A DNA stretch of 63,748 nt, filler included, from Kipferlia bialata (taxonomy: Eukaryota), in NCBI GenBank assembly GCA_003568945.1. It is 4 parts of 4 records of this genome, joined end to end, with 100 filler letters (N's around TTAATTAATTAA, not from the genome) between each part and the next. Parts side by side here need not be neighbours in the genome. Positions count along the whole stretch, not along the records: positions 20,162 to 40,204 come from BDIP01000399.1; 3 more parts are not named here. One strand, 5' to 3'. The notes under the pieces are model-generated. The model saw only the letters and a list, made by a program, of their open reading frames with translations. It had not been told where the DNA came from and did not search any database. Of this stretch, positions 14,915 to 63,510 are shown piece after piece (within the stretch, counting starts at the first letter, position 1; each line of letters opens with the position of its first letter). A program made the translations under genes and the position numbers.

Positions 14915-14945
<31 letters not shown>

Positions 14946-16212
14946 CATATATATATATATGAGTATGTATATGTTGTACCCCTCGTACTGACCCTGACCC
15001 CAGAGACCCGTCTGTCCTCTCTGACTGGTGTCTTCTCCGTATCCACCACCCTCTCCATGTCAGACATGACAAGTGACGCACCTGATGTCAACTGTGTGGC
15101 TATAGTGTTCAAGAGGTGGGCGGACTCAAACTTGTGTACTATCTTGTTGTGTACATTGTGTGCATATTCACTCATTGTGTCTCCCTTGTCACAGCGTCTA
15201 TGGGTCTGTATTATTGGCTCTGATTTAGTGTCCGTTCTTGTGTATATATGTAACCGTCACATAATCTTGAGCTGCCCCTTCTACCCGTGGCCTCACCCCC
15301 AGTGACATGGCCAACAATGACTTCTCTGGGTTCTCGTGTACCTACCAGGCCAACCTGGCATCCACAGACACATACGTCACAATGGCAGGTGGGGGGTGAT
15401 GGGATCTCTCTCTCTATATATCTCTATACGAGATGTGTTCTTCAATACACTAGTTGTGTTTACGAATTATGTTTACGAGTATTTCTATACGTCAATGTTT
15501 GGCGGCGTTTATATGTCGATGGAGATACTGAGAAGATGGAGTGTCTCCTACTGCTCTGACCCCAGTTGTCCTGACCGTTGTGCTTGTGTTTGGTGCCGGT
15601 GTCTGCATGTGTAGGGAGTCTGCGACAGAGAAGAGAGAGTTCTTGGAGCAATGCGAGGTATGGCCAGTTCAGTCGGCATCGAAGGCTCTCTAGCAAATGA
15701 TATGGTGTGTATATATACCCTTCTCAAGACCCTCTGCCCGTATCACCCCAGGAGCCCATCATGCTGTCAGCTGTGCATACACACGAGACATACCCACTCA
15801 ACCAGGTGGGTACAAGTATATTATATGTGTGTCTGGGGTATCACAGTGATGCGTATGACGTATTGTGTTTTGGGTCTGTTGTGCCCGACCTCCCCCCTCC
15901 CCCCAGCCCCCCCTCCCGGACCTGTCCCTGTCCCTGGAGGACATGGCCCCCACCGCACCAGTGGCCATCCCGTCCCACCCCGTGGCATACCCCAAGGTGG
16001 GGTATGTGACCCATCAGACCCATCAGACAGATACAGAGGCCCAGGAGGCCAGTGACACAGAGTCAGACGATGTAAGGAAGATGGAGAGGGGCAAGGACAG
16101 AAACACCCTCTTTGCGCACACCTCCTCTGTCAACAAGGGGGGACCCAGTGGCAAGGCACTGCCTGGCTCTAGTAGGGCCACCCCCCTGCCCAGCCTCTAT
16201 CGCAAGGGGTAG
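14257..16212 (+). CDS. CUB-domain type I membrane protein
   Basis: Signal peptide (MCHSMISLTLLCLMVLLGVLG), CUB-like motifs LETDSDYLYVY and IVFKSDMANNDFSGFSCTY, one TM helix (VVLTVVLVFGAGVCMC) and a cytoplasmic tail ending LYRKG*. Confidence 0.7.
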
Positions 16213-20061: not shown

Positions 20062-20161
20062 NNNNNNNNNNNNNNNNNNNNNNNNNNNNNNNNNNNNNNN
20101 NNNNNTTAATTAATTAANNNNNNNNNNNNNNNNNNNNNNNNNNNNNNNNNNNNNNNNNNNN
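20062..20161. other. Artificial scaffold-joining linker
   Basis: 100 nt of N with TTAATTAATTAA (stops in all frames) at 20106-20117. Confidence 0.95.
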
Positions 20162-23074: not shown

Positions 23075-26000
23075 ATGTGCCACTGAGACCCATGACAGAA
23101 CCTGTGGTTAAAGGGTGTAGAGGGAGAGAGAGAGAGAGAGAGAGATAGATAGAGAGGCAGCACACTCCTACACTTGTAACTATAGGTTCAGTAGTATATA
23201 CACAACTTACCTAGCGCCACACCAACGAATGAGCCAATGGTGGTCTTCTTGGACAGAGTGGTGACAAGGGTGCTGTCTCTAGAGGGTCAGATACACAAGT
23301 AAAGAGATAAGAAGAAACTCAAACTACGGTGCTATCTGTAAGGGTGAGCATATATATGCATTATGAGTCTCTCCTGACCATAGACACCAGCTCAGTGCCG
23401 ACACCATCGACACATAATATAGTATATATCCACAATACAATATACAATATGGAATGTATACACTATCCTACTATACGACTATACCAATAGTTATCTCCTA
23501 ACCTGACCATAAACACCAGCTCTGTGCCGACTCCGTTCACGTAGGGGAACTTGGCAGGACCAGCCACATCGCCTTGGAGTCAGTATACGGATACGCCTCA
23601 TTGTGAAGAATTAGTTTTCTGCCACACAATGCACATAACTGTCGCCTGGGAGTCTTAACATATTCATATACATATATATATATATACATACCTGTCTCCT
23701 TTGAGTCCAGTTCAATGTGGTAGCCAGTGGTGAGCTGTCCACCTGGGGTAAGATACGTAAATAGAGAGACTTGCATAGAATAATACACATATATATGATG
23801 CAGATATACTAAGAAACTGTATTGATACAAAAGATGCCAGTGGTGAGCTGTCCAACTGGGGGGAGGGATAAGAACATATATTAATGTGAATAGAAGTTGG
23901 GGGGGAGAGAAATAGAGGGATGTAGCGGTGAGCTGTCCACCTGGGGTGATGTATGTATATGGAGAAAGACACTGAGTGAAAGTAGAATATGAGAGAAACA
24001 TAGTAAATATAGAGTAAATAATAAACATCTTATACCTCCTGTGGCGTCCTGGTAGAGTGACGGTGTGGCACCAATGGTGACAACAGAGGGGGCCATGCCC
24101 TACAATAAGAGACCGTAGAGGGAGGACGGGAGAGACAATAGCAATATACAACAGCGAGAGAATATATACACTGCACCTTGTAGACTGTCTCCACACTTGG
24201 TACTAGCTCAAGAGAATCCAATATAAGTCCATGCCAGTCAAACAGAATGTCATAGTCATACCTTGAAGACTGTCTCGACACTGGGCACTAGCTCAAGAGA
24301 GACAGTACTAGGTAGCTGGTCCGTGGTGATGTCTGACATAAGGGTGTAGAATGAGAGAGAGAAGGAGAAGGGGGGGAGATCACTTCACATAAGGCTGTAG
24401 AGAGAGAGAGAGGCAGAGGTACATTCAGGAGAGAGAGAGAGAGAGAGATTATCTGTTGTCTCTGTCAGGTATACTTGTATTAAGGGTGTAGAGAGAGAGA
24501 GAAAAGGGTGTAGAGGTAGAGAGATTACCTGTTGTCTCGTCGGGTATACTTGTATTAAGGGTGTAGAGAGAGAGAGATAAGGGTGTAGAGGTAGAGAGAT
24601 TACCTGTTGTCTCGTCAGGTTTACTTGTATTAAGGGTGTAGAGAGAGAGAGAAAACGGTGTAGAGGTAGAGAGATTACCTGTTGTCTCGTCAGGTACACT
24701 GGATCCGAAGCTGATATCCGCAGTGATGCCCTGGGAGTGTGCGGCAGTGCCTGACAATAAGGGTGTAGAGGGAGAGAGAGAACTCTGGCGGCAGTGCCTG
24801 ATATAAGGGTGTAGGGGAAAGAGAGAGAAATATCGTAATATGAAAGGATTAGAGCTATGGAAGTCCACTTGCAACAAATGGAAGCAGTCAAAGAGAGAGG
24901 ACTACATGTACAATACTTGAGAAGAATGTGGACTCGTATAATGGGTCCGATTGTATTTATGTATATTCCCAATTAATATATAAACACATGTAATATATAC
25001 CTGAGAAGAATGTGTAGACGTATGGATCCGTCTCACTGTCAGTCTCAAACACGCAGTCAGACATGGTGTACCTGGAATGAGAGTGTAGAGGAAGAGAGAG
25101 AGAGGGAGAGAGAGGGAGATGTCTCAAACACACAGTCAGATATGGTGTGCCTGGAATAAGGGTGTAAAGAGGGAGAGTAAGGGTGTAGAGACAGAGTAAC
25201 AACGGTGAGGAACTTTGGTGAGAGTTCTATCTATATATAAGAAATCTGTATTGTATCTATCTATCTATCTATACCCATACGTACTGTACATGGCAGGAGT
25301 ACCCAGCCGCTATGTAGTCTGTACCAGTAAGATCAGTCCTGATCCATGCGCACTGGAGTTAGGTTGCAGACGGAGGGAGGAATGAGTGATAAATATGTGG
25401 AGCGGGAGAGAGAAGAATCTTTGTTAGAGATAGGAATGTAATGACGTTCAGTTCCTCGTGGGCGTAGCGTGGATCGACAACACTATATATATACTACAGA
25501 GATATATAAATGAATAGAGAGAGAGATAACCAACCTGGTGGGCGTAGCATGCATCCGGTGTGATACCATCCTCATCTGCGACAGCTGGGGGTCAAGCAAT
25601 AATTAGTGATACTCCGGTTACAGTATAGAGTAATGACTATCATACATTTAGGCCATCCCCGGTGCTCGTCATAGTATCAGAGCCGGTGCCAAATTGAAGT
25701 GCAATACAATATATAAAATAATATACATAAGTATAAGAAATAATTACCATACAATCCATCCACACTGCTTGTCATGTATCAGAGCATGTGCCGAAATATA
25801 TAATACAGAGACAATACACTATAAGAATATATATACAGTATTCCTTACCATATAGTCCATCCACAGTGCTTGTCATTGTGTCAGAGCATGTGCCGAACTG
25901 ATCCACGTCATCCCTATCGGATACACAGTCAGACTCAGACCCGAAGAAGGAGAACTCAACGTTGATGGTGGCTGATATAAGGGTCTAGAGAGGGGGAGAG

Positions 26001-26395
26001 AGAGAGAGTCAGACTCAGACCCGAAGAAGGAGAACTCAACGTTGACAGTGGCTGACATAAGGGTCTAGGGAGAGAGAGAGAGAGAGAAACTCAACGTTGA
26101 CAGTGGCTGACATAAGGGTCTAGGGAGAGAGAGAGAGAGAGAGAGAGTCAGTCAGACTCAGATCAGAAGACGGAGAACTCAACGTTGATGGTTGCTGACA
26201 TATGGCGGTAGAGAGGGAGAGAGAGAGAGACACACACACAGTAAGACTCAGACCCGAAGAAGGAGAACTCAACGTTGATGGTTGCTGACATAAGGGGGTA
26301 GAGAGGAGGGGAGAGAGAGAGAGAGACACACACACAGTCAGACTCAGACCCGAAGAAGGAGAATTCAACATTGATGGTGGCTGATATAAGGGTCT

Positions 26396-26430
<35 letters not shown>

Positions 26431-29400
26431 CAGTCAGACTCAGACCCGAAGAAGGAATATTTAGAATTGACTCAAGGGTGTATTTGGAGAGAGAGGGAGC
26501 GAGCAAGAGAGAGAGATAGAGCCAGTCTTACCATTGAAGAGGATCTCTGTGGTGCTAGCGTCCCCGAGAGACAGAGTGGAGACCAGGAAGTTGGGGATGG
26601 TGGACTTGGTCTCCTAGGTGTTAAGGGTGTAGGGAGAGAGAGAGAGAGAGAGAGAGAGTGGAGACTAGGAAGTTGGGGATGGTGGACTTGGTCTCCTAGA
26701 GATTAAGGGTGGAGAGAGAGAGAGAGAGAGAGAGACAGGGTGGAGACCAGGAAGGGGTTTGTAGACTGTGTCTCTCTGGACTATAAGAGTGCAGAGAGCG
26801 ATAGAGAGAACCAGACGAAGATTGTGACAGTTAGCTGAGTATATACAATCCACACTATCAAGATAGTGTGTATACAGTGACATACAGTGAATACCTGAAC
26901 GTTATCCATCCAGAATGTCAGCACCAGGGATGTGCCCATGGCAAGGTATATACTATATGATATAAATAAATACATATATATATATATATACTATATACAT
27001 TTTGGTATATATAGTAGTGTAAGTACCTGTACGTTGTCCATCCAGAATGCCAGTACCAATGATGTGCCCATGGCAAGGGCAAACAGGTAGTAGATCAGGG
27101 TGAAGTAGCCACCAATCTTGGTTCTGATGTTAGAGAGTGCAAGATTGACAATAATGCAGTATATCATACCAGTATATCATACCAAGAGATGGTGTATAAT
27201 AAGTAGTCACTGCAGTAACTATGCCCAGTACAGAGAGGTAGTACAATATACATATATACGTACTGTCTGTTGATGGGTTCTGCCTTGTCTGTGGGTGGGT
27301 CAAGGGCGTATGTACTAATATATATAAGTATATACTTATATATATATATATTTATATATGTATATATTTATACATATACTCACTGTCTGTTGATTGGGGG
27401 TGCGTTGTCTGCGATGGGGTGGTCAAGGGTGAACCTATCCCATCTGGCCACATTGATCTGGGGTTGGTCTCCAATGAAATATATACAACTATATATTAGT
27501 ATATACATATATGTGTAGCACATTATGATATATCATGGGTGAACCTGTCACATCTGGCCACATTGATCTGATGGTATTAATTATCACATATTGATTCACT
27601 TAACACACAAAATTGCATTGATCCAGGTATAATTACATTGTAAACTAATGATACATATACCATATATAAATACTATATCCGTTATGTGTATACCTTGTGC
27701 CTTATGGGGTATGTGATGAGTAGCATCACAGCCAGGAGTACACACTCTGTGTACTAATGTACCATACTATATATACACTAGTATATATATACACTAGTAT
27801 ATATCATTGAATATGAATACCTTGTGTCTAATTGGGTATGTGATGAATAGCATCACAGCCAGGAGTACACACTCAAAGTACTAATGTACCACATAAGATA
27901 AACATCACTATATACATCTATCCAATAACGTATAAGTACCTTGTGTCTGATGGGGTATGTGATGAGTAGCATCACAGCCAGGAGTACACACTCAAAGTAC
28001 TAATGTACCATACTATATATACACTAGTAAAATATTTAGTAATGTGTATATACCTTGTGCCTAATGGGGTATGTGATGAGTAGCATCACAGCCAGGAGTA
28101 CACAGAGGAACCCAGCCAGGACATAACATACACGGGTCCATGTCTCAACCTGGCCTGGGGGTTAGGGAGATATATACTTATGTATCTCCACATATACACA
28201 AATACATATTCACATATGTATATTGTAGAATAACGATGAACATAAACGGGCCCAGGTCTCAACCTGGCCTAAGGGTGAGGTGGTTAGGGATATGCATGAA
28301 TACATGTATACTGGAATATGTATACAATGTGAACACATGATAATGTATACACTTTCCTGTCATCAATGACCTTGCGTCTGGCTGCACCTCTCTCTCCCTC
28401 CCCCTCTGTATATATATACGATCTACTACAAAGAATATACCTATCTATATTAGTATAACTATATATACATATTATATACCTGTCATCAATGACCTTGCAT
28501 CCGGCTGCACCTCAGTGTCACTCTCCAGGGTGGGCTTGGTGCCTAAAGGGGTGAGATAATGTTCTTATACCCATACTTAATCTATATAGGGAGAAAGTGT
28601 CACTCCCAATGGCTTGGTGCCCTAAGAGAGGACAGGATCACACTAGCTCACATATATGGATACCAATTGATAGAATGTCACATTATGTATATATTGTGTG
28701 TTGTGACAGTTGCTCACCTGCTGTGATGCTACCGATGGGACAGTACTCATCTTCGTCACAGTCCATGCACCTGACAATAAGGGTGTAGAGAGAGAGAGAG
28801 AGAGAGAGAGACTCAAGAATATATAGTCCAAATTGAGGCTATCCACTGTCCTTGTTGTGTCATATTGCACTTTGAGTGGTCGGTGAAGGGCCATTTATAG
28901 AATGAAGACAATAGATACAACATTATGGGAATGGTAACACCTTCGTTGACTGATGCATAGATGCATATCGTATATACATGATACATTTGCGTAAGTTACA
29001 TACTTTGAGTGGTCGATGGAGGACAGGTCCGCTGGGACTTACTTACAATTCACTAATCCTAATACGGAGAAAGTAGTTTGTCGCAATACATAGTAGTGTA
29101 TAGAATATATATCACTATGCACATATCAATATATCTTACTTTGAGTGGTCGATGGAGGAGAGATCTCCTGGGGTATCGAAGTATGCACGCTGGCCTAGTA
29201 TTAGTTATATATACATGGAGAGAGAGATATACAAATAAGTTGAAGAATTCCCGCTGGCCTAGTATTGCATATACTAGCAGGTTACTAGACAGAATTTACT
29301 ATATGCTATCTGTAGCATTCAAATACTTCCCATACAGGTACAAATATATATGTCTAACCATGCCTTCTGGGCATGGTGTACACCCTAGCAGGTTCCTGGC

Positions 29401-31520: not shown

Positions 31521-32286
31521 CGTACATGTACATGGTTGACCCATGGTACTGGTATGCTGTGCCCGATGTGGCTGGCAGCATGTCATAGTCTGTGACAACC
31601 TCGGTGTTGATCTGGATGTCAGACATACTCTATTCTAATATATGCATATATATACATATAAGGAGAGACAGAGAGCGAGAGCGATGTGGCTGGAAGCATG
31701 TCATAGTCTGTGACAACCTCAGTGTTGATCTGAGGAGTAAGATAAATATATAGATAGAGAGAGAGCGAGAGAAAGAGAGAGTCTGTGACAACCTCGATGA
31801 TCTGAAGGGTAGACCAATATATCAATTGACTCATAACTATATAGCAACGTCAATGTTTGAATATATACACCCATACCTGTGTATCCACTGAGTGGTCTGT
31901 CACGCCAACTATCGTATCCTATATACATATATATCTGTATATCAATATCAATATCAATATCAATGTCAATATATATACATACACCCATACCTGTGTATCC
32001 ACTGAGTGGTCAGCCACGCCGAGAGTCGTGATGTACCTGGGGGTGAGTAAACATTGTACTATGCACTATATACATACACGGAGGGTGCCGTATGTACCAA
32101 CTCAGGAGTACAAATACATAAAAATATACATAAACAAATATGTACACATCCATATATACATATATATATATACATATACATACATATACACATAAACACA
32201 TATATACCTGTAGGCAAAGGCGGATGTCCACAGTCTACCACCTAGTGTCCACACACTCCACACAGAGTCATCCACAGAAGGGTCTA

Positions 32287-32325
<39 letters not shown>

Positions 32326-32488
32326 TGTCCACACACACCACACAGAGTCATCCACATAAATTTCTAGGGTGAGATACCTAAACATAGATAAGTATATACA
32401 ATTGTGCAATCATATACACAAAGAGTACCTTCACTCTCATCCACCACCCTCTGCACCACAAATGCTTACTATAGAACACTCCTACATA

Positions 32489-32525
<37 letters not shown>

Positions 32526-33227
32526 GTTAATGATAGTGAACCAATTCACCATACCCTCACTCTCATCGACCACTCTTTGTACCACAAAGGCCGCATTGTC
32601 TACAGAGGAGTGGACACCCGTGTAGTCGTTGTCTAAGGGTGAGACATAGTATAGTACACATAGTTCACTTGATATTGACAGTATACATATACATATATAT
32701 ACATATGCATATGTCCACAGAGGAGTGGATACCCGTGTGGTCGTTGTGTAAGGGTGAGACGAAGCAAGTATATCATTCACTCGAATTCTTCGGGGGGTGA
32801 AATCAGACAAGAGATCAGAACCATATGTATGTATTGATGTGTATATTACCGAACACAATACATATACATTACCTGGGTACTGGTAGCGCCTGTATGCCAC
32901 CTGGTCTTGCAATACATATATAAAGTACTAAATATACACATATAAAGTATAGACATTACTAAACAATATATATATTGTATATAGAAAATATAAATAGTAC
33001 ATATAGTGGGGTGATGTCGTGTTGTAAATCTATACATTATACAAACTGTACCAAAATGTATATAGCGAAGTATTAATATTGAACTATATATACAATACCT
33101 GGGTACTGGTAGCGCCTGTATGCCACCTGGTCAGTGCCAAGGGTGGGTACAGCGCCCTCGTCTCTGTCTGGGGTAAGTGTATATGTATTCACATATATAT
33201 ATATGTATATATATATAGAGAGAGAGG

Positions 33228-35489: not shown

Positions 35490-38096
35490 CTATGGTACTC
35501 ATCACCTCATAGGTCAGATAGAGAGCAAGAGAGAGAAGGAGGGAGAGAGTGACTGATGGGAGACAATAATATATATACATATACATACCTGTTGAATCAT
35601 CATCTGTAGGGTAGACCTGCTCCCATGTCTGGGTATCCAGCCAGAATCAATAATTAATCTACTAAAATGTATAGTATATAATATTTCGTATATATATATA
35701 TATACATATACATACCTGTTGAATCGTCATCCGTGGGATAGACCTGCTCCCATGTCTGGGTATCGAGCCAGAAGACCCACACGTCGTTGAGGTAGGTGTC
35801 TGCAATAAGGGGCTAGAGAGAGAGAGAGAGAAGTGAATGCGCTGAGGTAGGTGTCTGATATAAGGGGCTAGAGAGAGAGAGAGAGAAGTGAATGCGTTGA
35901 GGTAGGTGTCTGATATAAGGGGCTAGAGAGAGAGAGAGAGAGAGTGAATGCGTTGAGGTAGGTGTCTGGTACTAGGGGTCCATAGAATACCTTTCTAGTA
36001 TATAGTAAGCAGTCCACATTTTTCTCTCAATATATAATATATATCCTCAATAATGATACCACACGTCGTTGAGGCAGGTTTCTGAGATAAGGGGCTAGAG
36101 AGGATGTATATACTAGAAAGGGTCTGGAAGATCTCGGAGCTGGATGGAGAGAGAGAGAACATAATACGCACACACGTCGTTGATGTAGGCGTCTGGTATA
36201 TATATCTGGAATATGGGGATAGGCAGCATATATATATGTGCAAATGTAAACACAAATACAATGTATACCTGTTGTTGTGTCACTTCCAAGCATAACCAGC
36301 AGGTTGCCTCCCCAGGCATGCATGTTGAGTCTCTCTCTGACGTGATAAAGGGTGTAGAGAGAGAGAGAGAGAGAGGTTGGGTCTCTCTCTGACGTGAATG
36401 AGGGTGTAGAGTGGGAGAGAGAGATGTTGAGTCTCTCTCTGACGTAAATAAGGGTGTAGAGGGGGAGAGAGAGAGATGTTCATTCAACTGAGTAACGACA
36501 TATTTTTGTATTTGTGGTCGAGAGAGAGAGAGTTTCTTGGAAGCCACAGTGATCATTATGAATGTATATATCTCATGACTACGTGTGAGAGAGAGGGTCC
36601 CTTGGGTCAGGGATCAGGTAGATAGTACATGTATATGTAGAGAGAGAGAGAGAGAGAGAGAGTACCTTGGGTCGGGGATCAGGTAGGACGATGTCTCAAC
36701 GACCTGGGTGATGAGTGACATATACTCTAGCCATAGAGAGTATCTCCCTGTCCCAGAAACATTACCGTCATCCATCACTCTCTCCTAAATAACTATAATA
36801 TAACATACCTCCCAGTTATCACTTGACGTTTCCTCTCCCTCATCCCCAGTGCCAGACACATCGCTAGAGAGGTCAAGGCTCCAGATCACAGAGGCCAAGG
36901 AAGCAGACTCAACCCTAGTGTGAAGATAGAGAAAGAGAGAGAGAGAGAGAGGGAGAGAGAGAGGGAGAGAGAGAGAGAGAGAGAAGTCAAGGCTCCAGAT
37001 GACAGAGGCGAGCGAGGCACACTCAACCCTGCTATTTAGGGTATGGAGAGACCGTGACACAGAGATATTAGCACTGAATTGATGTTATACAATAGTAGGA
37101 TACACATGCATACTATTTCTTACCTAGATCCACCGAAGATGTACATCTTGTCCCCCACCACAGCTGATGCCAGGAGAGAGGACTCGGGGGGGGAGAGCTG
37201 GTTGCTGACATGAGATGAATATGTATACACATATATTAGTGTGTGTGTGTGTATAGAGAGAGAGAGGGGGGGATGGGAGGAGAGAGACAGAGAGAGGACT
37301 CAGGGGGTGAAAGCTGGTTGCTGGGGTAAGATAGTAGTACATAAACATAGAGAGAGAGAGAGAGAGAGAGAGAGGACTAAGTGGGGGGCTGCGTATACAC
37401 GTACAGCAGGATGATGTCGTAGTCCGATGCAGTCACTGTCTGTCACAGAATAACTGTATATGTATACATCTAACTGAATATAGTAATAGCATATATATAG
37501 TATACACTACATACGTACTGTAGAATGATGTCATAGTCCGATGCCGTGACCGTCTGTTCATCCACAGTGACAGAGACAGTCTCACTCTTGGACATGCAGT
37601 TGGAGGCACCCTGGGAATTAAGGGTGTAGGGGGAGAGAATAAGGGTGTAGTAAGAGAGAGAATATGGGTGTAGAAGGGGGAGAGAGATATGATGATGTCA
37701 GAATAATCAAGGAAGACTGTTAATTTAAATATGTTGTGTAGAGAAAGAGAGAAAGAGAGAGAGAGAGAGAGTATGTCATGTACCTCGCTCTCCATGTATC
37801 CTCCGAAGAAGTACTGGGTGGCTGAGTCCTCTGACTCCAGGGGGGGAACCTACAGGTTAGATGTACATATATAGAAGATACACTATATATATTGATGTCA
37901 ATGCATTTCATCTGTGATGCTGAGTCCTCTGACTCGAGGGGGGGGACCTGATGGTAAGGGTATGCTAAAAAAACACCATATATGATAATACTGTATATAC
38001 TACAACACGTGAATACCTGACACATTGCCCCTCCGTCCGCTGCCACGTCTAGCTGACATACTATATACATATGCCTAATACATATAACTATATATG

Positions 38097-40204: not shown

Positions 40205-40304
40205 NNNNNNNNNNNNNNNNNNNNNNNNNNNNNNNNNNNNNNNNNNNNTTAATTAATTAANNNNNNNNNNNNNNNNNNNNNNNNNNNNNNNNNNNNNNNN
40301 NNNN
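40205..40304. other. Artificial scaffold-joining linker
   Basis: 100 nt of N with TTAATTAATTAA. Confidence 0.95.
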
Positions 40305-46123: not shown

Positions 46124-46961
46124 ATGTTGCTTACACACAGGGAGCACGCTCTGAAGAGGCCTGATACCTACATTGACAGTGTGGAGATCAGGACACAGGT
46201 ACATATATTGTTAATATTGTCTCTGTTTCCCTACATAATCCTTTGGGATACTCTACATATAGTATCTACTCTACATTGACAGTGTGGAGATCAGGACACA
46301 GGTATGCATATATTGTTATAATATTGATCTCTGTTTCCTTACTATATTCTCTGTCTAGATCTAATCCTCAATAATGTGCTTCCCTTTGTATACACATGTG
46401 GACACTCGCCTGTTGGATACTCAATATAGAGTATCTACTCACCTCAGCTTGCCTGGGTGTGGGAGAATGACACCCTGGTCCACAGGGAGACATCATTTGT
46501 GCCAGGTACCCTCTCTCTCTCTCTCTCTCTCTCTCACGCTCTCTTCAGATTTCACACACTCTCTCTCTCTTTAGACCTCTGTCCACACATCTAGTATGCC
46601 TCTGAAACAAGCATCATTATATATACACCCCGTCTGACCCAAGCCTTGTCAAGCTGTTCGATGAGGTCATTGTCAAGAAGAATTATGTTTTCTTTCTGTC
46701 TATCGATCTATATCTCTCTGTATATGAGTACAACTGTATCTGACCCAGGCCTTGTCAAGCTGTTCGATGAGGTCATTGTCAATAAGCACCATTATGTCTT
46801 TCTATCTATATAACTATCCACCTATATCTATCTATGTCTTCAATGTATATTATCTGACCCAGGCCTTGTCAAGCTGTTCGATGAGGTCATTGTCAATGCC
46901 AGTGACCACAGACAGAACCACATCAAGGTATACATATATATATATATATCCAGAGCTCATG

Positions 46962-47029
<68 letters not shown>

Positions 47030-47668
47030 TAGCTAATCATCAGGAGGTGAAGCACATCCAGGTCCACCTCTCTCTCTAATTATACATCTTTCTCTCTCTC
47101 TCTCTATGTATATATATGAGTATACCTGTCTCTAACTATCAGGAGGTGAAGCACATCCAGGTCCACCTCGACCAGGCAACTGGCAGGTATGCAGATATAT
47201 ATATGTATAATCCTGAGTACATATGAATGTATATCTATATGATATATATATATATATATATCATATAGAAATCTCGACCAGGCAACTGGCAGGTGTGATG
47301 ATGATAATTGTACCAGCCACACACTTAGAGTCCATTTGAGTATGTGATATATATATACATACATATATCTCTATGAGCATTACCCACCCACAGGATATCC
47401 GTCAAGAACGATGGACCTGGTATCAGGATCGAGATGCACAAGGTATTCTCATTCTATTGAATAATAGTATTCTAATCTCTCTCTCTAACTTCTCTCTCTT
47501 TCCCCCTTATATCTCAGGTCTCAGGCCTGGTGCTCAGCCAGCTCATCCTCCATTCTCTCTCTCTCTCTATATATATATGTATGTATTAATATACCCATTT
47601 GTATATGTATGTACCTAATACCCCAGGCCTCAGGCCTGATGCTCCCCCAGCTCATCTTCCTCGTTCTC

Positions 47669-47706
<38 letters not shown>

Positions 47707-49423
47707 ATCAGGCATCAGGCTTGATGCTCCCCCAGCTCATCTTTGGAGAGCTGAGGACATCCTCCAACTACGACGACACAGACGAGAGAGTCACAGGTAT
47801 TGGTGTATCTATACACTACTATAATGGGGAATGGTATATATGTATATATATATATACTACGACACGGACGATGGATCACAGGTACTGATAACTATCATTA
47901 TTATATAGTTGGGAATGACATATGTGTATGTATATATTCATGACGACACAGACGAGAGAGTCACAGATACATGATAGTGGAGAATGACATATCTATATAT
48001 AACCATATGTTTATATATATATATGGCGACACAGACGAGAGAGTCACAGATACTGATGTATGTATAGTGGGAAATTGCATATCCATTGTATTCTGAGCAT
48101 GTATGTTGTGTATATATTCCCGTGGATGTTGTTGAGTGTGTATGTATTATGTATTCATCATGGTGGTCTAACCCCCAGGTGGCCGTAATGGATACGGAGC
48201 CAAGCTGGCCAACATCTTCTCTCGGTATGTACATATATATAAATATATATATATAAGCATATATAGTAGTGCAGTAGTATAGTATACAAAAAAAAAAATA
48301 TATATACATAATGTGTTACGGAGCCAAGCTGGCCAACATCTTCTCCCGGTATGTATACAAGTGTTATGTTCTTTTCTACGATTCTATGCGATCTCGTATT
48401 GAATATCTAGTGTGTTTCTTTCTCTTTCCATTACCCCTTGTTGTTTGCCTCTGTTATCTCTCCCCCTCCACTGGCCTCTTAAGTACTCTGTTCATACAAG
48501 TGTGATATACACATATATATATATATATCAATATAATTATTATCTTCATACTAACACCAGTGAGTTCACTGTGGATGAAAGGTCCAAGAGACCGACCTAT
48601 CATATATATCTATATATATGTATATTGCATGTATCTCTCTCTCTCTCTCTCTCTGTCTGTCTCTACCCCCCTAACACCAGTGAGTTCACTGTGGAGACTG
48701 TGGATGGCAACAAGTCCAAGAGATACACCCAAGTGTGGACCAACAACATGAAGGACTGTGCTCCTGCCACAATCGAGAAGGTATCCCATGCATTATATAT
48801 ATATATATATATATACACGACTCACCCCAGGTCAGCAAGTCCACCAAGCCCTACACCAAGATCAGCTTCATCCCCGACTACCGCTACTTCAAGCTGTCAG
48901 GTACTACACACACACATATATATATATACATGAGTATGTACATATATTGACATGTATCTCTCCATATAAACCAGTTCATACTGCTGTGAGGGATATTATT
49001 GCCATTTTCCTGCTCTCTTCATCTCCACCCTCATATTCTCTCTTTCTCTCTCTTTCTCTAGACCCTTATGTCAGGCCTTGACAATGACCACATGGTCATG
49101 ATGACCTCTCTATCTCTCTCTCTCTCTCCCTCTAGACCCTTATTTCAGGCCTTGACAATGACCACATGGCCATGATGGCCAAGAGGACACTCGACATTGC
49201 TGGATGCAACGACAAGCTCAAGGTATACTACACGTGTGATGATGGATATTGTACACATATATATTAATATATGGTAATATATATATGATGCAACGACAAG
49301 CTCAAGGTATTGTATATGATTATACATATTAATGTATTTACATATGTATATGTAATGCCTCTAATGCCCTGGTATCCCTCAACGGTGTGCCCTTTGGTGC
49401 CGATGGATATTATCCCTCTCTCC

Positions 49424-49454
<31 letters not shown>

Positions 49455-50617
49455 CTTATACACATATATAATGCCTCTAATCACTAGGTCTCTCTCAACG
49501 GAGGTGCCTTGGGAGTCGATGAATATTATACAAAAATACATAAACATTGATACATGTATATGAATATATACATATATATATATATATATATACATATATA
49601 CGTTGTGAGTCTTATGCCTAGGTCTCCCTGAACGGTGTCCCCTTTGGTGTCGATGGCTTTGAGGACTACGTCAAGATGTTCTTCAGATCGGCATTCCCAG
49701 GTACATTGTTATATATGTAAGTATGAACATACATTATACATACATATTATTCTCGGCATTCCCAGGTACACTACTATCTGAACCGACTCTAATTGAATAT
49801 ATATATATCTGTTCTCTCAATCATATGAGTGTATGATATCCCCCCGCCCCCCCCCCCCACTAATAGTACCCATCAGACATATATATACATATATGTAAAT
49901 ATTAGTGTCTATCCATTCCTTAACCCCAGACCTCTGCCACGTGGATAGATACCTCTCTCTCTATATATATATATCTATCTATATATATATATATATATGC
50001 ATTGCCTCACCCCCAGACCTGTGCCACGTGGATGAGGACCCAGAGGAGGACAGTGATGTCATCGACGAGGTGAGGGGGCATAACAGTATATACACTGATG
50101 AAGCATATATAGTAGTATGTTGTATAATAGTATGCCCTCGAACCCCAGGACAGTGATGTCATCGATGAGGTGAGGGGTCATGACAGTATATATCATATTG
50201 TCATATACATCATACATGCCCTATGTATATATCAGTGTCACTCTCCATGTGGATTGATGTCATCGATGAGGTAATGGGTCATAACAGTATATACACTATA
50301 ATACCTGTGTATGTACTATCCCTGTTGTGAGTGTCAGAGACAGAGAGAAGGAGAGAGATAGGGAGAGAGAGATGATACTATCATCGGTGACTTTATCAAT
50401 ATGTACTGATGTCAGTATACGTAAGGGGTATAGGCTAGTATGCCATCTAACACTAGGACAGCATCAAGAAGAAGAAGCGTCAGTATCAATGTATATATAT
50501 GAATGGATATGTGTTTGCATATATATTATCTAACACTAGGACAGCACCAAGAAGAAGAAGAAGAAGCCTGCCAAGAAGGCCCCTGAGGACAAGTACATTG
50601 CATACGCTAAGGTACAT

Positions 50618-50650
<33 letters not shown>

Positions 50651-53600
50651 AATATATATGTCAACTGAATGCTAATCTCTGACACCTCATGTCCTATTGT
50701 ATCTCTTCTGAGTTGCGTCTACCTCCCCTCCCCCACTCATATATTCCAATTGATCTCATCTAACTCCCCCTCTCACCCTACCTCCCCTCCCCCACTCATG
50801 CATTCCAATGAATCTCATCTAACCCCCCCTCTCACCCTAGGTCTCTGACCGCTTCGAGGTTGCTGTCACCCAGACCCCCTCCGGTGCATTTGAGCAGATA
50901 TCATTCGTCAACAGCATCAACACATACGCAGGGTGGGTGTTGTTGTATCTCTCTCTATATATATATACACGCATATATGTATATAGTCCAATTGTCCCCA
51001 TGTGGACTGTGTGGCACATCTCCAACTCTCTCTCTCTCTATCTCTCTTTCTCTCTCTATATATACATTATTATGAATACATCTCACCCCAGTGGCTCCCA
51101 TGTGGACTGTGTGGCGGACCAGCTCATGAAGCCTATCCAGGACGAGGTATGGAGTATATATATGTATATATATATATGTGTATATGAATATATATGTGTG
51201 TACAATGTATTAGTATGACATCCCCCTCATTCCCGACGAGGTATATATATACCCTATTGTCAGTTCATGTGAATGTAGTTAAATACTTTTACATATGATT
51301 AGTAATTATAGTATTATGATAGTATTATAGTACTTAGTGTGACATCCCCCTCATTCCCAGGTCATGAAGAAGTCCAAGCTGGGCAAGGACGAGAAGCCAC
51401 CCTCCAAGGGACAGGTTGGTACTACCTGCATATGTGTATATGCCTGTATTAGTGCATGTATATGCATCTGCACTTTGCTGGTCTCGGTTTGTCACATGTT
51501 GCATCTATACTGGCACTCTCCTACTGTGAAGTCTTATTCTCTAGTGACTCACTTCCAGGTCAAGAGCAGGATCTGGCTCTTTGTGAGGTCCCTGGTCATC
51601 AACCCATCCTTCAACAGCCAGGTGCCCGCTTCTCTCTCTCCCTCTCTCTCTTAGTTTGATATATGCATTCTCTCTCTAGATTCGATACGGTGTCTGTCAC
51701 CTCCTGGCAAGCAACCCCTCCTTAAGCACCCCTCCCCTTTGCTCTATCGCAGTTTCCATCTCCTCAATACATGGTCCTACAGTATCTCTCTCTAGCCCCT
51801 TATTTTAGGCCAAGTCTGTACTTGGCACCACCACCTCCTCCTCTCTCTCTCTCTCTTTCTCTCTCCCTCTAGCCCCTTATTCCAGGCCAAGTCTGTGCTT
51901 GGCACCACCTCCTCCTCCTTTGCCATGGACTGCCAGATAGCACCTGCATTCCTCAAGGTGTGTCCATAAGTATATATGTCAATACACACATGTATATTGT
52001 TACGACAAGAATATGTGCTGAGTGAACACCCTCTCACTATGTTACTATTCCTTCCTCACCCTCTAGAAGATTGTCAAGCTCCCCCTCCTCGCTGACATTG
52101 TGGATCTGGCCATCGTCAACAGGTACTAATTAACATATATATACATATATGTATACATATATAGATATATACGCATATATATATATAGGATATTTACAGT
52201 TATATGCTGACATTGTGGATCTGGCCATCGTCAACAGGTATTTGAGTATAACCATAATAGTATTGTGTATATACATGTTTCTATACCCATTATCATACAC
52301 ATGCATATATATATATATGCTGACATTGTGGATCTGGCCATCGTCAACAGGTATGTGTGATGATAACACTATCATGTATCATATATCGTATATCATAAAT
52401 ACGAATATATATATTATGGATATGTACTTTTATATGCTGACATTGTGGATCTGGCCATCGTCAACAGGTATGTATATTTGAATGGACGCATATTATTTAA
52501 TGCATCACATATATATGATGCGAATTATTAGTATGTTTGATCGTGAATGGCTTTTCTATCTTGCGAATGTGTGTATATTTTACCACTCATCCCAGGTCCA
52601 AGGAGCTATCTGTGTATAATGCTCAATATTAATATGCCTATAATAATCTAGGTATTGAATGTATTATTATATATATCATTAATACTCACCCCAGGTCCAA
52701 GGAGCTGAAGACTCACTGAAGAAGAGTGACTCTCATTCATATGTATACTTTATGTATATTACACATATCTATATTTACTATATATATATATTTACTATAT
52801 ATTTATATATCAACTGTACTCACCCCAGGTCCAAGGAGCTGAGCAAGAGTGATGGCACTTTTCTAACTATTCTGTGTATAATGCTCAATATTATTATATC
52901 TATGATAATATATATATCATTTCTTACTTACCCCAGGTCCAAGGAGCTCAAGAAGAGTGACGGCACCAAGAAGGCCAGGGTGAGGGGCATTCCCAAGCTG
53001 GATGACGCAAACCACGCAGGACAGGTGGGTATCTACAATATATATATGAAGAGTGTATATATATATCATATATCAAAATTAATGTGCATTATACATATGT
53101 GCCAAGCTGGATGACGCCAACCACGCAGGACAGGTGGGTATGCATTTGTATTAACATATATACCCCCTCTCAACCGCTGTATCTCCTTTATGAATATATA
53201 TACACCCCATATGCACCTAACATCCAGGGCAATATCATTATACTATATATATATATATATATATATATTATTCTATACAATATAATATTGTATTGCATTA
53301 ACCCCCAGGGCAAGAAGGCCCAGCAGTGCACCCTTATAGTATATATCACTATAGTCATAATGTCTCTCTCTCTATATATATGTATGTATATACCCCCTAA
53401 TCCCCAGGGCAAGAAGGCCCAGCAGTGCACCCTCATTCTGACAGAGGGAGACTCTGCCAAGACACTCGCTGTGGCAGGTATATATATATACATACATATA
53501 TACATATATATTTACCCATACTCCCAACCATTTATGCATTTAGAGACTCTGTCAAGATACTCGCTGTGGCAGGTATGGTGTTGAGTATATACATCCTATT

Positions 53601-54936
53601 TCCCACCCAAACACCATACGCTCCTCTGTCCTTCCACTACTCTGACCCCCTAGGTCTTGAGAATGTGGGCATAGACCCAACCCACTCATACACATATATA
53701 TATGTACCTAAATATACTATATACATACAGTGCGTATTCCTTTCTGACCCCCTAGGCCTTGAGATTGTGGGCAGAGACAAGTACGGAGTGTTCCCACTCA
53801 GAGGTATGTGTATGGATATGTATAGGTATACAGAAAACACACACATATATATATCAAGTGCACAGTTTGACAAATATCTACTCTGAATATTTGGTTCATT
53901 TGTATTACTATGACAGTGTCTCACCTTCAGGCAAGATGCTGAATGTCAAGGGTTTTTCTGTATTACTTCAAGTGTATTTATATATTGTTTGTGAGTACCA
54001 ATCTATCTCACCCTCAGGCAAGATGCTGAATGTGAGGGGCGCCAAGGCCAAGCAGATTGCAGAGAACACTGAGATCTCGTACATCAAGCAGATCATGGGT
54101 GAGGACTGCAACCCACATGCTATTTATACCAGTTACTAGAGACCAGATGGTTAAGCATATCCTCCTCACACCTAGATCTCAAACAGGGCGTGGACTACTC
54201 TGATACAATGATTGATTGATCATACGTCTATATATATACGTGTGTAGATGTGTATGTGTATTCTCATCTATCAGGTCTCAAGCAGGGCGTGGACTACTCT
54301 GATGATGCCAACTTCGCCCGTCTCAGATACGGGCACATCATGATCATGGTATGTTGATATGTATTCAGATTTCCTTGATAAGTAAATACTCCTCCGGTAC
54401 TGTGTGCAGAACTCAATACCCATCTTGACTTTGCATACTGTATCATGTTCGTATCCCGCAATCCTGGTCGACCAGGATCCTATTGTATAGTAGAAGTGTA
54501 TATATAGCATCACAAAACCTTATGCCAGGTTGATCAGGATCACGATGGATCCACACATAAAGTATAATGTATATACAATGTATATATAGTATTCTATCCC
54601 CTCATTTCAGGTTGAGCAGGATCCAAACATAATAATGTATAATGTATATATAGTATTTCTTTAGTACATATATTGTACCAACCTCTCATGCTTGATATAT
54701 ATATATATTGTCTATATAGCATCATATCCCCTCATTTCAGGTTGATCAGGATCACGATGGATCCCACATCAAGGGCCTCGTCATCAACTTCATCCACAGG
54801 TGGGTAGGCCTGAATTCTTATGTTATAGGATACTTATGCACATGTGTATGTGTGCTTCCGCGTTGTAGTGTATCCATGCTTATTGTATACATATTGACGT
54901 TTCAGGTTCTGGCCCATCCTCCTCAAGAGGCTTGCC

Positions 54937-54989
<53 letters not shown>

Positions 54990-55605
54990 ATATATGTGTA
55001 TATGTATGAGTATATGGGTAGCACACATATACTCACCTTCAGGTTCTAGCCCACCCTGCTCAAGAGGCATGCCCCATTATATATACACCTATATATATAT
55101 GTATATATATATGTATGAATCTGATACCTATATCAGTCCTATATATGTATCTCACCATTAGGTTCTGGCCCACCCTGCTCAAGAGGCGTGGCTTCCTGGT
55201 TGAGTTCATCACTCCCATTGTGGTGGCCAAGAGGGGGACAGGCAGGAACCAGAGGTCGGATGTACGGGGACTTAATATATACAGTGTCTCTCTGTATTTT
55301 CTATTCTCACGGTCAGACCTTCGATACCAACCCCTTTTATACATGTTTACTCTATATATATAATAATGTATTGTATTCTTACTGTCAGACCTTCTATACC
55401 ATCCCCTAGTATATGTGTTATGTCTCTCTCTATATGTTGTATATATACTCTAATCACCACCAGACCTTCTACACCATCCCCGAGTACGAGGCCTGGCGTG
55501 ATGCCCTGAGCCAGACGGACAAGAGGGGGCTGGCCGTCAGATACTACAAGGTATGGGCATGTATATACTATATTATATATATATGCATATACTTTAATGA
55601 TTATG

Positions 55606-55636
<31 letters not shown>

Positions 55637-56555
55637 GGCGTGATGCCCTGAGCCAGACGGACAAGAGGGGTCTGGCAGTCAGATACTACAAGGTATGGGC
55701 ATGTATATACTATATATACTATATATAGATATATGTTAGTATGGGTATATATGAGTATGACAAAGGGGTCTGGCAGTCAGATACTACAAGGTGTGTATAA
55801 TGATATTCCGCACTGCAGTATGTCGCTGCGACACACAGTCTTATCCCAGGGACTTGGTACCTCCACACCAGCTGAGGGCAGGGCATACTTCAGGTACCGT
55901 TGAATGTATATGAGTATAAGGCTGTATACTATCTAGTTCATGGATACAGAATGAGTTCAGGACAACATTCGTCGTAGCAAATCTCCAGTTCCTGTTAGTC
56001 TGTAGTATCTATATTCTCTACAATGTTATCATTCCTATGAAGATCTGCCATCTCATCTCCAGGGCACTCACATCCAACAAGAAGCTGTTCAAGTTCGACC
56101 ACCAGACAGGTGAGGACATAGATAACGTTGACTTCCATCATCTAATTTACATTATAAAACAATTTACTGATCTGTCTGTGTATATATGAGTGTGGCACGA
56201 TGCTGTTCAAGGGTCGGCCACCAGATACTCGAGTTTCTATACACAAGATTGTCAATGTAGTGCACTCTTCCATTCACCTGATCTCCAGACCGCTCCATGG
56301 ATAGCTATAATACATTATCACACGTATACTCACCTAACTCCCAGACCGCTCCATCGAGCTGGCCTTTGCCAAGGGAGTGGGGGCAGCCGCCGCCAGAAAG
56401 GTATGTATACTATGTATATAATGTGTACATATATATATGTTGAATTAGTATTAAATATATATTTATGACATATGACTATCTTTGTATATACTAAGGGAGT
56501 GGGGCCAGCAGCTGCCAGAAAGGTATCATCATCAATTTGATTGTGTATTCTAATA

Positions 56556-56586
<31 letters not shown>

Positions 56587-57211
56587 TCCTCAGGGCTGGC
56601 TGGCCAACACTGACCCCAACGTCTACCTGGACCAGAGTGCCAAGCAGATCTCATACTCAGACTTCGTCAACAAGGTAGAGTTATATATATGGGAGTATAT
56701 GCACATGTATCAGCATTTCAACGTTAACCTTCCTCTGATATCTCTCTGCTCTGACAGACTCGTACAATTCTTTAGACCTTCTCTCTCATCATCAGGAGCT
56801 TGTTCTCTTCTCCAGTCTATGCACATTAGTATATAATAGATGTACATGTATTATTCATTAGTATAACTCATCATCAGGAGCTTGTCCTCTTCTCCATCGC
56901 TGACAACCTGCGTTCCATCCCCAACATCATGGACGGTACGTGTATGTATATATTAGTATATATGTCATTGACTGCTATTCGTGCGTCTCACACCAATATC
57001 TGTTCGTACATATATATTACATGTATCACTCTCTGCCTGACCCCCCAGGTCTCAAGACTGGCCAGAGGAAGATCATCTTCTGCTGCTTCAAGCGCAACCT
57101 GACCACAAGGTGGGTCTTATCTCAATTTCTAGTTGTGAGATGATGTCCTCTCTTCCGATATTTTCTAGTAAACATAAGTGTTATGTCACAACCTTGGGTC
57201 TCTATCTCCCC

Positions 57212-57252
<41 letters not shown>

Positions 57253-57306
57253 TGTGTGTGTATACCCTTGTTCTGACCCAGCATCAAGGTTGCCCAGTTC
57301 AGTGGG

Positions 57307-57337
<31 letters not shown>

Positions 57338-60178
57338 ATGCATGTATATATACACTTTCTCTAACCCAGCATCAAGGTTGCCCAGTTCAGTGGGTATGTG
57401 TCTGAGCATGCCTCGTACCACCACGGAGAGCAGTCCCTGGGAGGGGCCATTGTGGGAATGGCTCAGGTATGGATGTGTCGTGATAGTATACATACATGTA
57501 TGTATACTATTGGTTAATAGGTTATACAGTCACTGGGAGGGGCCACTATATATCTGTAGACTCTGTGTTGCAGTATCATTATCAGTATCAGTGTTTCAAT
57601 TGTATGTTATTGTGAGCATGGTCCCGTATGAGTATATGTGTACATGAGTGTATATTCCAATGTACGGCACAGTGTATGTTTCCGCTCTCTCCCCCTCTCC
57701 CCCTCAGACCTTTGTGGGCAGCAACAACCTCAACCTCCTGGTGCCAGATGGGCAGTTTGGAACAAGGTACTTACTGTGTAGTTAACAATATACATATAGT
57801 ATATATGTACCAATATATATAGTATTGTATATGTATCAAGGGTCCTGGTGCCAGATGGGCAGTTTGGAACAAGGTACTTTCTGTGTATATATATTATATT
57901 TCACTTTTACACTAAATGTGTACTGTGTGTAATGATGCGCCAGATGGACAGTTTGGAACAAGGTAACTAATACATTCCATGCTACGAGAGCCATATATAT
58001 ATAGTAGAAGTGAATGGGGTTGTAAAACACTCTACAAGTCCTATAATTGTATATCTATTGTATTATATGTATATTAATGACTCTCACCCCAGGCTGCACG
58101 GAGGAAAGGACGCTGCCTCCCCAAGATACATCCACACACGCCTCAACCCCCTCACTCGGTACGTGTAGAATACTAAAGTAATTCATAGGATTTGTATATA
58201 TGCACGCTATTATGTATATGATCAATATGTAGAGTATGATCTGTCTGACCCTTAGCCTTGTGTTCCCTGCTGCCGATGACCCCCTGCTGCACTACCTCAA
58301 CGATGACGGACAGTCCATCGAGGTGTGTGTCGTACAAGTTCATTTGTTTCATATATACCATCATCTTACCCATCACGAGTACTACATGCCCATCATACCC
58401 ATTCAGTATATATATGTATAGTATATGTAGAATATATACATATATATCTAGTGTATCATGATCATCTTACCCAGCCCGAGTACTACATGCCCATCATCCC
58501 CATGGTCCTGGCCAACGGGGCAGACGGTATCGGCACAGGTATGGGAGTATTTTAGTAGATATATATATTAGTAGATATATATATTAGTAGATATATATAT
58601 TAGTAGATATATACCTTCCACTATACCCAGTGCCCTGAGCCAGTACATGTTAGTCACTGAATGAACTCTAACACCAGGCTATGCCACGTCCATCCCCACC
58701 TACTATGTATCACTATAGACTCATCCCTATATATATTGTCTTTATGTACCCTGACATTCTAGGCTATGCCACGTCCATCCCCACCTACGACGTGTCTGAT
58801 CTCATCAGGGCAGTCAGAAGGAGACTCCTGGGAAGGTATTATATACACATTATATATACATAGTATACACATTATATATATTGACTGACTATATATACTA
58901 GTGTGTCTGAGCTGATCAGGACAGTCAGAAGGACACTCCTCGGGAGTTGTGTTTAGTATGGAGTATTCTATCCTATATACCTCCACTCTGGAGTATATGA
59001 ATGTCAACCAATCTTTCTCTCTGTTGTCTGTGTATATATGATAATGTGTATACCTGTCACCTTAGGAGCACTGTGGAGGAGGTCACTGATACAAGTATTC
59101 ATATGCTAATTCGTTAATATGTATATATACTAATGTATATGTATACATACACTAACATCCCAGGAGTACTGTGGAGGAGGCCACCGACATACATCCATGT
59201 TAATGTATATATATGTATATTACGTATTTCTCTGTATTCATAGTATGTGTGCCTTAGGTATGTCTAACGCCTCAGTAGTATATATATACTAAAGTGTATA
59301 CATCTTACTTCTCAGGAGCACTGTGGAGGAGGCCACCGACATGCACCCCTCCTGGAACAAGTGGACGGGGGTATCCACTGCAAAGAGGAACAAGAAGGGT
59401 GAGAAGAGTGTGCTCTGTATATAAGGAATGTCTCTGTATATAAGGAACAAGAAGGGTACGTCGCAGCATCTGCCTCTAAACTAACACTCTTCTGTGTATA
59501 TATGTAAGGCATATGTAAGACAGGAGTGTCTAGTGCCAAGAGGAACAAGAAGGGTGAGGGAGTGCATCTACCACCATGAATCCAACACTCTTCAGATCAC
59601 AATGTACATATATGTGTTTACATGTCTCATTCTATGCCAGGTCTCTGGTTTCTCTGTCAAGGCCCATATAGTAGTGTGATGTATTTACGTATATATACAT
59701 ATGTATTCCTACATCTTACATCAGACCAGGTGTCTGGTTTCTCCGTCAAGTGTGATGTACTAATGCAAATATAATGAATCATATACAAGTAGAATCTTAT
59801 TGTCTCACTGTAGGCCAGGTGTCTGGTTTCTCCGTCAATGGTCTCATTGTAGTGTATGTAAATAGTTTTATGTATTAATGTCTCATACCAGGCCAGGTGT
59901 CTGGTTTCTATGTCAAGTGCCTCATATAGCTATGTATATATGTATTTGTATAGTTATGCTTATACACATATCTAATACTAGGCCAGGTGTCTGGTTTCTC
60001 TGTCAAGGGCCTTATTGTAGTGTGATATAATAGTGTATATGCAAATAGTTTTATGTATTAATGTCTCATTCTAGGCCAGGTCTCTGGTTTCTCTGTCAAG
60101 GGCTCCTGGAGAGAGACTGGCCAGGACGAGATCCTCATCCACGAGCTGCCCATCAGAGTGTGGACACAGGCCTACAAG
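46124..60178 (+). CDS. TOP2: DNA topoisomerase II (type IIA), about 40 exons, 3' truncated at scaffold end
   Basis: Spliced motifs: EHALKRPDTYI, LFDEVIVNA, NDGPGI, TSSNYDD, GGRNGYGAKLANIFS, IPKLDDAN, LILTEGDSAK, YGVFPLRGKMLNV, MVDQDHDGSHIKGL, YYKGLGTS, RSIPNIMDGLKTGQRK, YHHGEQSL, active site GGKDAASPRYI, and ELPIRVWTQAYK. Confidence 0.97.
52091..52470 (+). repeat. Four identical 35-nt copies of a TOP2 exon end + donor with unique spacers
   Basis: GCTGACATTGTGGATCTGGCCATCGTCAACAGGTA at 52091, 52206, 52319 and 52436. Confidence 0.95.
59636..60100 (+). repeat. Six copies of a TOP2 exon start
   Basis: CCAGGT(C/G)TCTGGTTTCT..GTCAA about every 80-95 nt. The last copy is the complete exon. Confidence 0.9.
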
Positions 60179-60345: not shown

Positions 60346-60445
60346 NNNNNNNNNNNNNNNNNNNNNNNNNNNNNNNNNNNNNNNNNNNNTTAATTAATTA
60401 ANNNNNNNNNNNNNNNNNNNNNNNNNNNNNNNNNNNNNNNNNNNN
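60346..60445. other. Artificial scaffold-joining linker
   Basis: 100 nt of N with TTAATTAATTAA. Segment lengths 20061, 20043 and 20041 fit concatenation of size-sorted scaffolds. Confidence 0.95.
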
Positions 60446-63461: not shown

Positions 63462-63476
63462 TGACGATAAGGGTGT

Positions 63477-63510
<34 letters not shown>

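Follow-up and report, generated by a model that had tools for sequence, protein, structure and literature searches.

Why should non-coding copies of exon halves differ from their exons mostly at silent sites? The question is raised by exon 18 of a kelch-repeat gene of Kipferlia bialata (32555..32632, minus strand, AG...GT; NDYTGVHSSVDNAAFVVQRVVDESE), an exon contained both in the deposited model P0003 and in an RNA-type contig. A copy of its 3' half followed by GT, here called a donor-side echo, lies downstream at 32429..32465 (−), and comparison of 32591–32555 with 32465–32429 confirms letter by letter the six silent and zero replacement differences reported in the first-pass annotation. The intron flank past the GTA of this echo is unrelated to the flank of the real exon. 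A copy of the 5' half, the acceptor-side echo (32712..32747, −), has its AG mutated to AC and carries one silent and two replacement differences. The donor-side echo of exon 17 (33167–33099) at 32873..32906 (−) is identical at 34 of 34 letters, and the acceptor-side echo of exon 19 (32283–32208) at 32324..32359 (−) has two replacement differences.

The window, that is, the whole stretch of 63,748 nt of K. bialata DNA that was analysed (assembly GCA_003568945.1, filler included), contains the two genes from which the echo statistics were drawn. Protein searches with the exons led to two deposited K. bialata proteins, topoisomerase II (P0001) and a kelch-repeat, Cys-rich membrane protein (P0003), and mapping of both back onto the window gave exons with AG/GT ends and open frames. 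The kelch gene KIPB_002419 (22340..39483, −) is modelled with 46 exons and has 78 echoes; the topoisomerase II gene TOP2 (46124..60178, +, up to an assembly gap) is modelled with 41 exons and has 56. The exons of further genes (B, C, H, D, E, G and A) come from our own exon predictor, which recovered 20/25 and 14/16 on its training genes. One predicted gene (8071–10724, −), which we take to be of an alpha/beta-hydrolase-like family, has eight echoes with 17 silent and five replacement differences. A homolog search for a coiled-coil gene gave no match at E<=1e-20.

The sequence TTAATTAATTAA lies between runs of N at 20106–20117, 40249–40260 and 60390–60401 and resembles an artificial contig-joining linker; this suggests that the window consists of several joined contigs, and the TOP2 model ends at one such linker. 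Across the window, acceptors contain a branch-point-like CT(A/C/G)AC motif a few bases before CAG/TAG, a second acceptor type being (CT)n-ACACCCTTAT...CAG. Diplomonads have fused branch point–acceptor signals similar to the CT(A/C/G)AC acceptors found here. In the deposited TOP2 protein P0001, TDKRGLAVRYYK and IKVAQFSG are repeated (55755–55790 and 57282–57306, +), and the protein terminates on an echo; in the deposited kelch protein P0003, GNDVQLKYLSRD is repeated. These repeats apparently exist because echoes were called as exons, and the two echoes taken as exons in the TOP2 model are probably prediction errors. Caution is needed with deposited gene models, in which false exons can stem from absorbed echoes.

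The remaining examples of the first-pass annotation were also recovered. The donor echo of kelch exon 27123–27027 (26895..26946, −) has the five silent and one replacement differences claimed (27077–27027 compared with 26945–26895). Two donor echoes of TOP2 exon 55464–55550, at 55636–55692 and 55764–55790 (55636..55790, +), each have two silent and no replacement differences, as claimed for the first of them against 55494–55550. TOP2 exon 49622–49700 has acceptor echoes at 49372–49406 and 49488–49521 (49372..49521, +); comparison of 49622 with 49372 gives four silent differences and one replacement over the span first considered, and a second replacement at 39 nt. These examples had been picked by eye and are indeed favourable, as the acceptor-side echo of exon 18 illustrates. 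Other families show repeated copying: TOP2 exon 19 is followed by three donor echoes (52067..52467 with the exon, +), each identical to it at 32/32 letters and all with one breakpoint, with junction-side intron flanks not above background likeness, and kelch exon 30 has three 51-nt donor echoes (27694..28154, −) with a common breakpoint and one silent site with three states. In addition, near-identical whole units including the intron part occur at 24453–24700 (−), 25900–26535 (−), 35781–35966 (−) and 63441–63659; these arrays are taken to be recent plain tandem duplications beside the diverged type.

A systematic scan was carried out in which every exon was aligned as DNA to its two neighbouring introns, blind to codon position. 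Scores of at least 15 were reached by 45/85 and 49/85 adjacent exon–intron pairs, compared with 1/6978 non-adjacent pairs. The two genes contain 134 half-exon echoes with 196 silent, 127 replacement and four stop differences, and a junction-anchored echo is present in 66 of their 85 introns. For the statistics, 14 of the 134 echoes were dropped (seven gapped, seven short of the junction), 6 nt were trimmed at the far end, and the pooled ratio was taken from one echo per exon side in 86 families. Differences occur at 58/1465 0-fold and 90/374 4-fold sites, a JC ratio of 0.14 (bootstrap 95% 0.10–0.20; p=2e-11 against 0.5). One neutral and one constrained copy, simulated through the same detector, give 0.46–0.58. 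The silent bias, first noticed in chosen cases, thus survives codon-blind sampling, and the pooled dN/dS comparison proposed at that time, run here on two genes, falls well below the one-neutral-copy expectation; the silent excess over this null is real.

By gene, the ratio comes to 0.18 for TOP2 and 0.13 for the kelch gene; by side, donor echoes give 0.10 and acceptor echoes 0.20; it is also low when each base is taken separately. At third positions, transversions are found at 11/316 sites where the amino acid changes and at 55/374 where the change is silent (p=2e-7); transitions are equal at replacement and silent sites. Three further predicted genes give 9/329 against 12/61, a ratio of 0.12 (p=0.003). 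Genes A and G were excluded from this replicate as unreliable models; alone, gene A, the least reliable, gives a weaker signal (10/158 against 8/51) and gene G gives 2/14 against 0/2. The first-pass annotation had also noted more G/C-ending codons in echoes, which does not hold generally: silent differences are nearly symmetric in GC (GC to AT 54, AT to GC 40). No echo was found in the 16 introns of two predicted short-intron genes (12026–13782, −, and 14296–16208, +; median intron length 111–114 nt), and their neighbours carry echoes in most introns, so that echo load varies by gene.

Several other causes of the low ratio were rejected. The simulated null passes through the same detector and still gives 0.46–0.58, which excludes detector bias; third-position or base-specific mutability is excluded by the contrast between transversions and transitions and by the per-base ratios; and saturation under codon bias would give 0.61–0.69, compared with the 0.24 seen. 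A dead neutral duplicate should give approximately 0.5 against a live exon, and two dead copies approximately 1 against each other. The values found are 0.14 and, for echo–echo pairs, 0.32 (33/556 against 26/151). Whatever its cause, the silent bias indicates that echoes are not plain dead copies.

The echoes have a regular architecture. A donor echo consists of the 3' part of the exon plus GT and lies downstream, an acceptor echo of AG plus the 5' part and lies upstream, and in introns with both types the donor echoes precede the acceptor echoes in 20/20 cases. Echoes are 15–58 nt long, approximately half of the exon, and more than 65% of the exon is covered in only 6 of the 86 families, compared with 36 expected with uniform breakpoints. 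Units of approximately 105 nt are spaced at 107 nt, 90% of the spacings being 70–140 nt, and each echo adds 95 nt to a base intron length of 145 (r=0.88); only 15 repeats consist of intron sequence alone, and 11 of these are tied to echoes. Where an exon has both echo types (19 exons), acceptor and donor echo overlap by no more than 5 nt, as though the exon were split near its middle. Almost all echoes (127/134) reach the splice junction or are gapped; seven do not. Identity is approximately 93% up to the junction and 50% just past the splice dinucleotide, against a background of approximately 32%; echoes were detected from the exon side alone.

Neighbouring echoes have a common breakpoint in 22/34 pairs (chance 0.17), and neighbours agree at 90% of letters in their exon parts but at 48% in the flank on the junction side. 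Shared breakpoints together with alike exon parts and unlike flanks suggest that echo positions are old and the exon-derived sequence young. Independent birth of each unit is ruled out by the same shared breakpoints. Introns with both donor and acceptor echoes number 20, against 21.7 expected under independence, which gives no indication of a single paired insertion event; paired insertion of a whole foreign intron was rejected on these numbers.

The differences themselves show a mixed pattern. Silent divergence is near-uniform at approximately 0.24, and silent counts fit one constant rate, exponential ages being 13 log units worse, while replacement counts fit variable ages. Replacements score in BLOSUM much like single-base changes drawn at random (−0.53 vs −0.66, n=68, p=0.28); they include three distinct stops, and five of seven indels shift the frame. 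Had the echo stayed under selection at the protein level, a uniform silent rate combined with random, age-like replacements would not be expected. Three states occur in 5 of the 27 4-fold columns that vary among echoes. Echoes that have lost GT/AG carry more replacements than the others (0.072 vs 0.033) at an equal silent level, which age and release from selection explain equally well. The donor GT is lost at a higher rate (11/102) than 0-fold sites change (29/966), and loss of the acceptor AG (6/130) is no more frequent than change at 0-fold sites (49/1043).

Read contigs were aligned to one 983-nt stretch, 32203–33185, at 85% likeness, with repeats inside skipped. The RNA label of the RNA-type run is a guess, although its contig is spliced. 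This 4397-nt contig joins exon 33099–33167 to 32555–32632 with no other letters, skipping the donor echo, and uses the real donor of exon 18 at 32555; the joint between exon 18 and the real exon 19 is visible only as seven in-between letters, and the contig differs at one letter from the acceptor echo 32324..32359 over the aligned part. A DNA contig with the donor echo and its upstream intronic joint has a depth of 331, and another (32532–32899, depth 345) contains the acceptor echo and the real exon 18 in cis, so echo variants are not confined to a separate haplotype. No contig crosses the TA repeat between exon 18 and its donor echo. At 85% likeness, the DNA contigs on 32203–33185 show no other letters and hence no second allele, and the culture looks homozygous at that locus. 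The DNA run is possibly the source of the window, in which case it checks the assembly rather than another strain. Two metagenome scans for relatives found none.

These contigs bear on two of the explanations that can be offered. It is extremely unlikely that echoes are an assembly artefact in which two diploid haplotypes were stitched in tandem. The genome is a short-read assembly, reported as probably diploid from k-mers (PMC5874029), and the unbridged TA repeat would suit such an error; the independent contigs, however, hold the intron-to-mid-exon joint of the donor echo at a depth like that of the exon contig, as the proposed read-depth check at this one locus also found (331 vs 345), the three independent depths are equal (331, 345 and 400), the acceptor echo and real exon are in cis, and 7/86 families have three to five echoes. 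Very unlikely, too, is the non-canonical route into mRNA suggested in the first-pass annotation, with echoes also reaching protein and under direct selection there. The proposed search of RNA for echo letters, which covered one locus and one RNA-type contig, found only real exon letters and junctions, rare forms being dropped from and invisible in contigs. An AG stands just before 16/55 donor-echo starts against 22/165 controls (p=0.012, not independent), and the two deposited TOP2 exons that are probably prediction errors could also be cited for this route, but the upstream AG scores inside the real acceptor range for only 6/55 donor echoes, the frames of candidate mini-exons are random, and echoes contain stops and frameshifts. 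The TOP2 donor echo 50149–50169 (+), which has a strong acceptor upstream, is a well-formed 21-nt in-frame mini-exon (DSDVIDE) that could enter mRNA.

Differences in rate alone would require plain sister-templated duplications, an intron turnover far above that of echoes and, at silent sites, a rate of change in the real exon several times that of the same letters in the echo. Introns rich in microsatellites are consistent with this, and so are the 41/120 echoes with flanks above background, as for plain duplications, the other 79 being no better than other introns. It is nevertheless improbable: two ad hoc rate differences are required, the 41 echoes with better flanks still give a ratio of 0.23, silent counts do not track ages, and the 4-fold differences lack the base or transition preference that a targeted mutagen would leave. 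Selection through swapping-in within one lineage, where deletion or conversion between direct repeats moves the echo into the coding position, is also unlikely, if less so. Were swaps frequent, replacements in the echo would be indirectly selected against and diverged alleles would be unneeded. Shared breakpoints and arrays do show exchange among units, and both the excess of replacements in echoes without GT/AG and the retention of the acceptor AG fit. However, a simulation limited to clonal exon–echo conversion with lethal back-conversion, without exchange between alleles, gives ratios of 0.50–0.74; replacements are not conservative, and stops and frameshifts occur; the ratio does not clearly rise or fall away from the junction (0.13, 0.15, 0.20, 0.10); and the rate of donor GT loss is above, not below, the rate of change at 0-fold sites.

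The explanation that we prefer, and consider somewhat probable, is that junction-spanning duplications of approximately 105 nt are refreshed by exchange with functional exons, some of which belong to strongly diverged alleles. What is observed directly is the architecture, the size of the units, the excess of silent changes, the randomness of the replacements, the drop in identity at the junction and, for the exon tested, canonical splicing; the steps that follow are proposed, the birth of the units by analogy. Units may be born when synthesis-dependent strand annealing aborts and polymerase-theta end joining completes the repair, and they may multiply by unequal exchange; splicing at the first donor and the last acceptor would make them tolerable, and exchange would be confined to the exon part because only that part is still alignable between alleles. 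Silent differences would then have been inherited from alleles, and replacements would have accumulated later by neutral decay, a division expected if the silent differences predate the last contact of the echo with a functional exon. An allelic silent divergence of approximately 0.2–0.25 could reflect an outcrossing, hyperdiverse population or two long-diverged homologs (a hybrid or old diploid); the uniform silent divergence fits the homologs and the three-state sites fit the outcrossing population. The silent diversity that this reading requires, approximately 20%, would be extreme among known eukaryotes.

This reading was chosen because the simulation approaches the observed values only with inter-allelic exchange. 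The simulation is a single-site Wright–Fisher model whose parameters were tuned to the data, and at low theta it may not have reached equilibrium. At theta 0.15–0.2, inter-allelic exchange gives pS 0.21–0.22, pN 0.039, a ratio of 0.17–0.19 and an exon diversity of 0.20–0.23, compared with observed values of pS 0.24 and pN 0.04. Of the options raised in the first-pass annotation, capture from divergent alleles therefore fits best, probably jointly with the DNA exchange of its swapping option; that exchange probably stands, and its confinement to one clonal lineage does not, since the clonal simulation never falls below 0.5 and replacements are not conservative. Exchange with diverged alleles needs two additions, later loss of heterozygosity or selfing for the homozygous-looking locus, and selection against competing donors for the rapid loss of GT. 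Neither the narrow unit size (90% of spacings at 70–140 nt) nor the limit of echoes to about half an exon (58 nt at most) follows from it.

Background on repair is compatible with such a mechanism. K. bialata is listed with PolQ, Spo11, Dmc1, XPF and Rad52, and without Ku70, Rad51A and BRCA1; HELQ does not appear as a row in the supplement (PMC8516963). The same source describes metamonads without Ku and fornicates without Rad51A but with Dmc1 paralogs (PMC8516963). Dmc1 is reported to stabilise mismatched triplets (PMC6719624), and the K. bialata spliceosome is described as reduced (PMC6679479). A more tentative proposal is that long introns are nearly all rebuilt from ~105-nt units by mismatch-tolerant, Dmc1-type repair between highly diverged homologs. 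The introns might then form an archive of allelic exon halves that feeds silent variation back to genes, and one genome might reveal both a silent diversity of approximately 20% and cryptic recombination.

Several known systems share parts of this arrangement. In interlocus gene conversion and concerted evolution, two-locus theory holds that recombination lifts the difference between duplicates towards allelic diversity. As there, exchange keeps copies alike, but the partner in concerted evolution is a paralogous gene, and here it is a non-coding half-exon approximately 100 nt away in the same pre-mRNA. Dscam has arrays of duplicated, mutually exclusive exons. These resemble echoes as tandem exon-like copies with low dN/dS and unalignable introns between them; unlike a Dscam exon, an echo has one splice site and roughly half the length of an exon; echoes also include stops and frameshifts and are absent from the RNA-type contig tested at one locus. 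An acceptor and a donor per copy, as in mutually exclusive exons, are not found: an acceptor-like AG precedes 6/55 donor echoes, and GT follows 14/65 acceptor echoes against 43/195 controls.

In human F7 IVS7, a 37-bp VNTR lies across an exon–intron boundary and only the most upstream donor is used (PMC1557585). There, as in K. bialata, tandem units carry the exon end and donor into the intron, the first unit spans the boundary and downstream pseudo-donors are silent, the real donor at 32555 being the one used here. IVS7 is one locus with homogeneous units, whereas in the measured Kipferlia genes most introns have units, next to donors as well as acceptors, whose intron parts cannot be aligned and whose exon parts differ mainly at silent sites; the whole-length likeness of F7 units is not seen (0.90 in the exon part, 0.48 in the flank). 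In Caenorhabditis elegans helq-1 and brc-1 mutants, aborted SDSA with polymerase-theta end joining generates head-to-tail duplications from approximately 100 bp upward (PMC8654963). The Kipferlia units are likewise tandem, in an organism listed with PolQ and without Ku70, Rad51A and BRCA1. The C. elegans copies are identical, sister-templated and of median size ~1 kb, and those of Kipferlia are ~105 nt, in a wild genome, with allele-like divergence. In the open-licence literature searched, no description was found of introns in which half-exon units are stacked so densely and diverge like alleles, and the main text of the K. bialata genome paper has no matches to 'exon' or 'duplicat' (PMC5874029). 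The individual parts are known; it is their combination at this density and with allele-like divergence that those searches did not find.

If exchange with diverged alleles is the correct explanation, one genome would yield tens of thousands of allele pairs, a figure extrapolated from 1.6 echoes per intron in two genes. Introns of this kind would also provide a natural assay for how splicing settles on the first donor and the last acceptor. Direct tests of sex, recombination and allelic diversity would become possible in a Giardia relative that is free-living and has neither Ku nor Rad51A, and a single genome of this free-living fornicate would document genetic diversity and recombination that are otherwise hidden.
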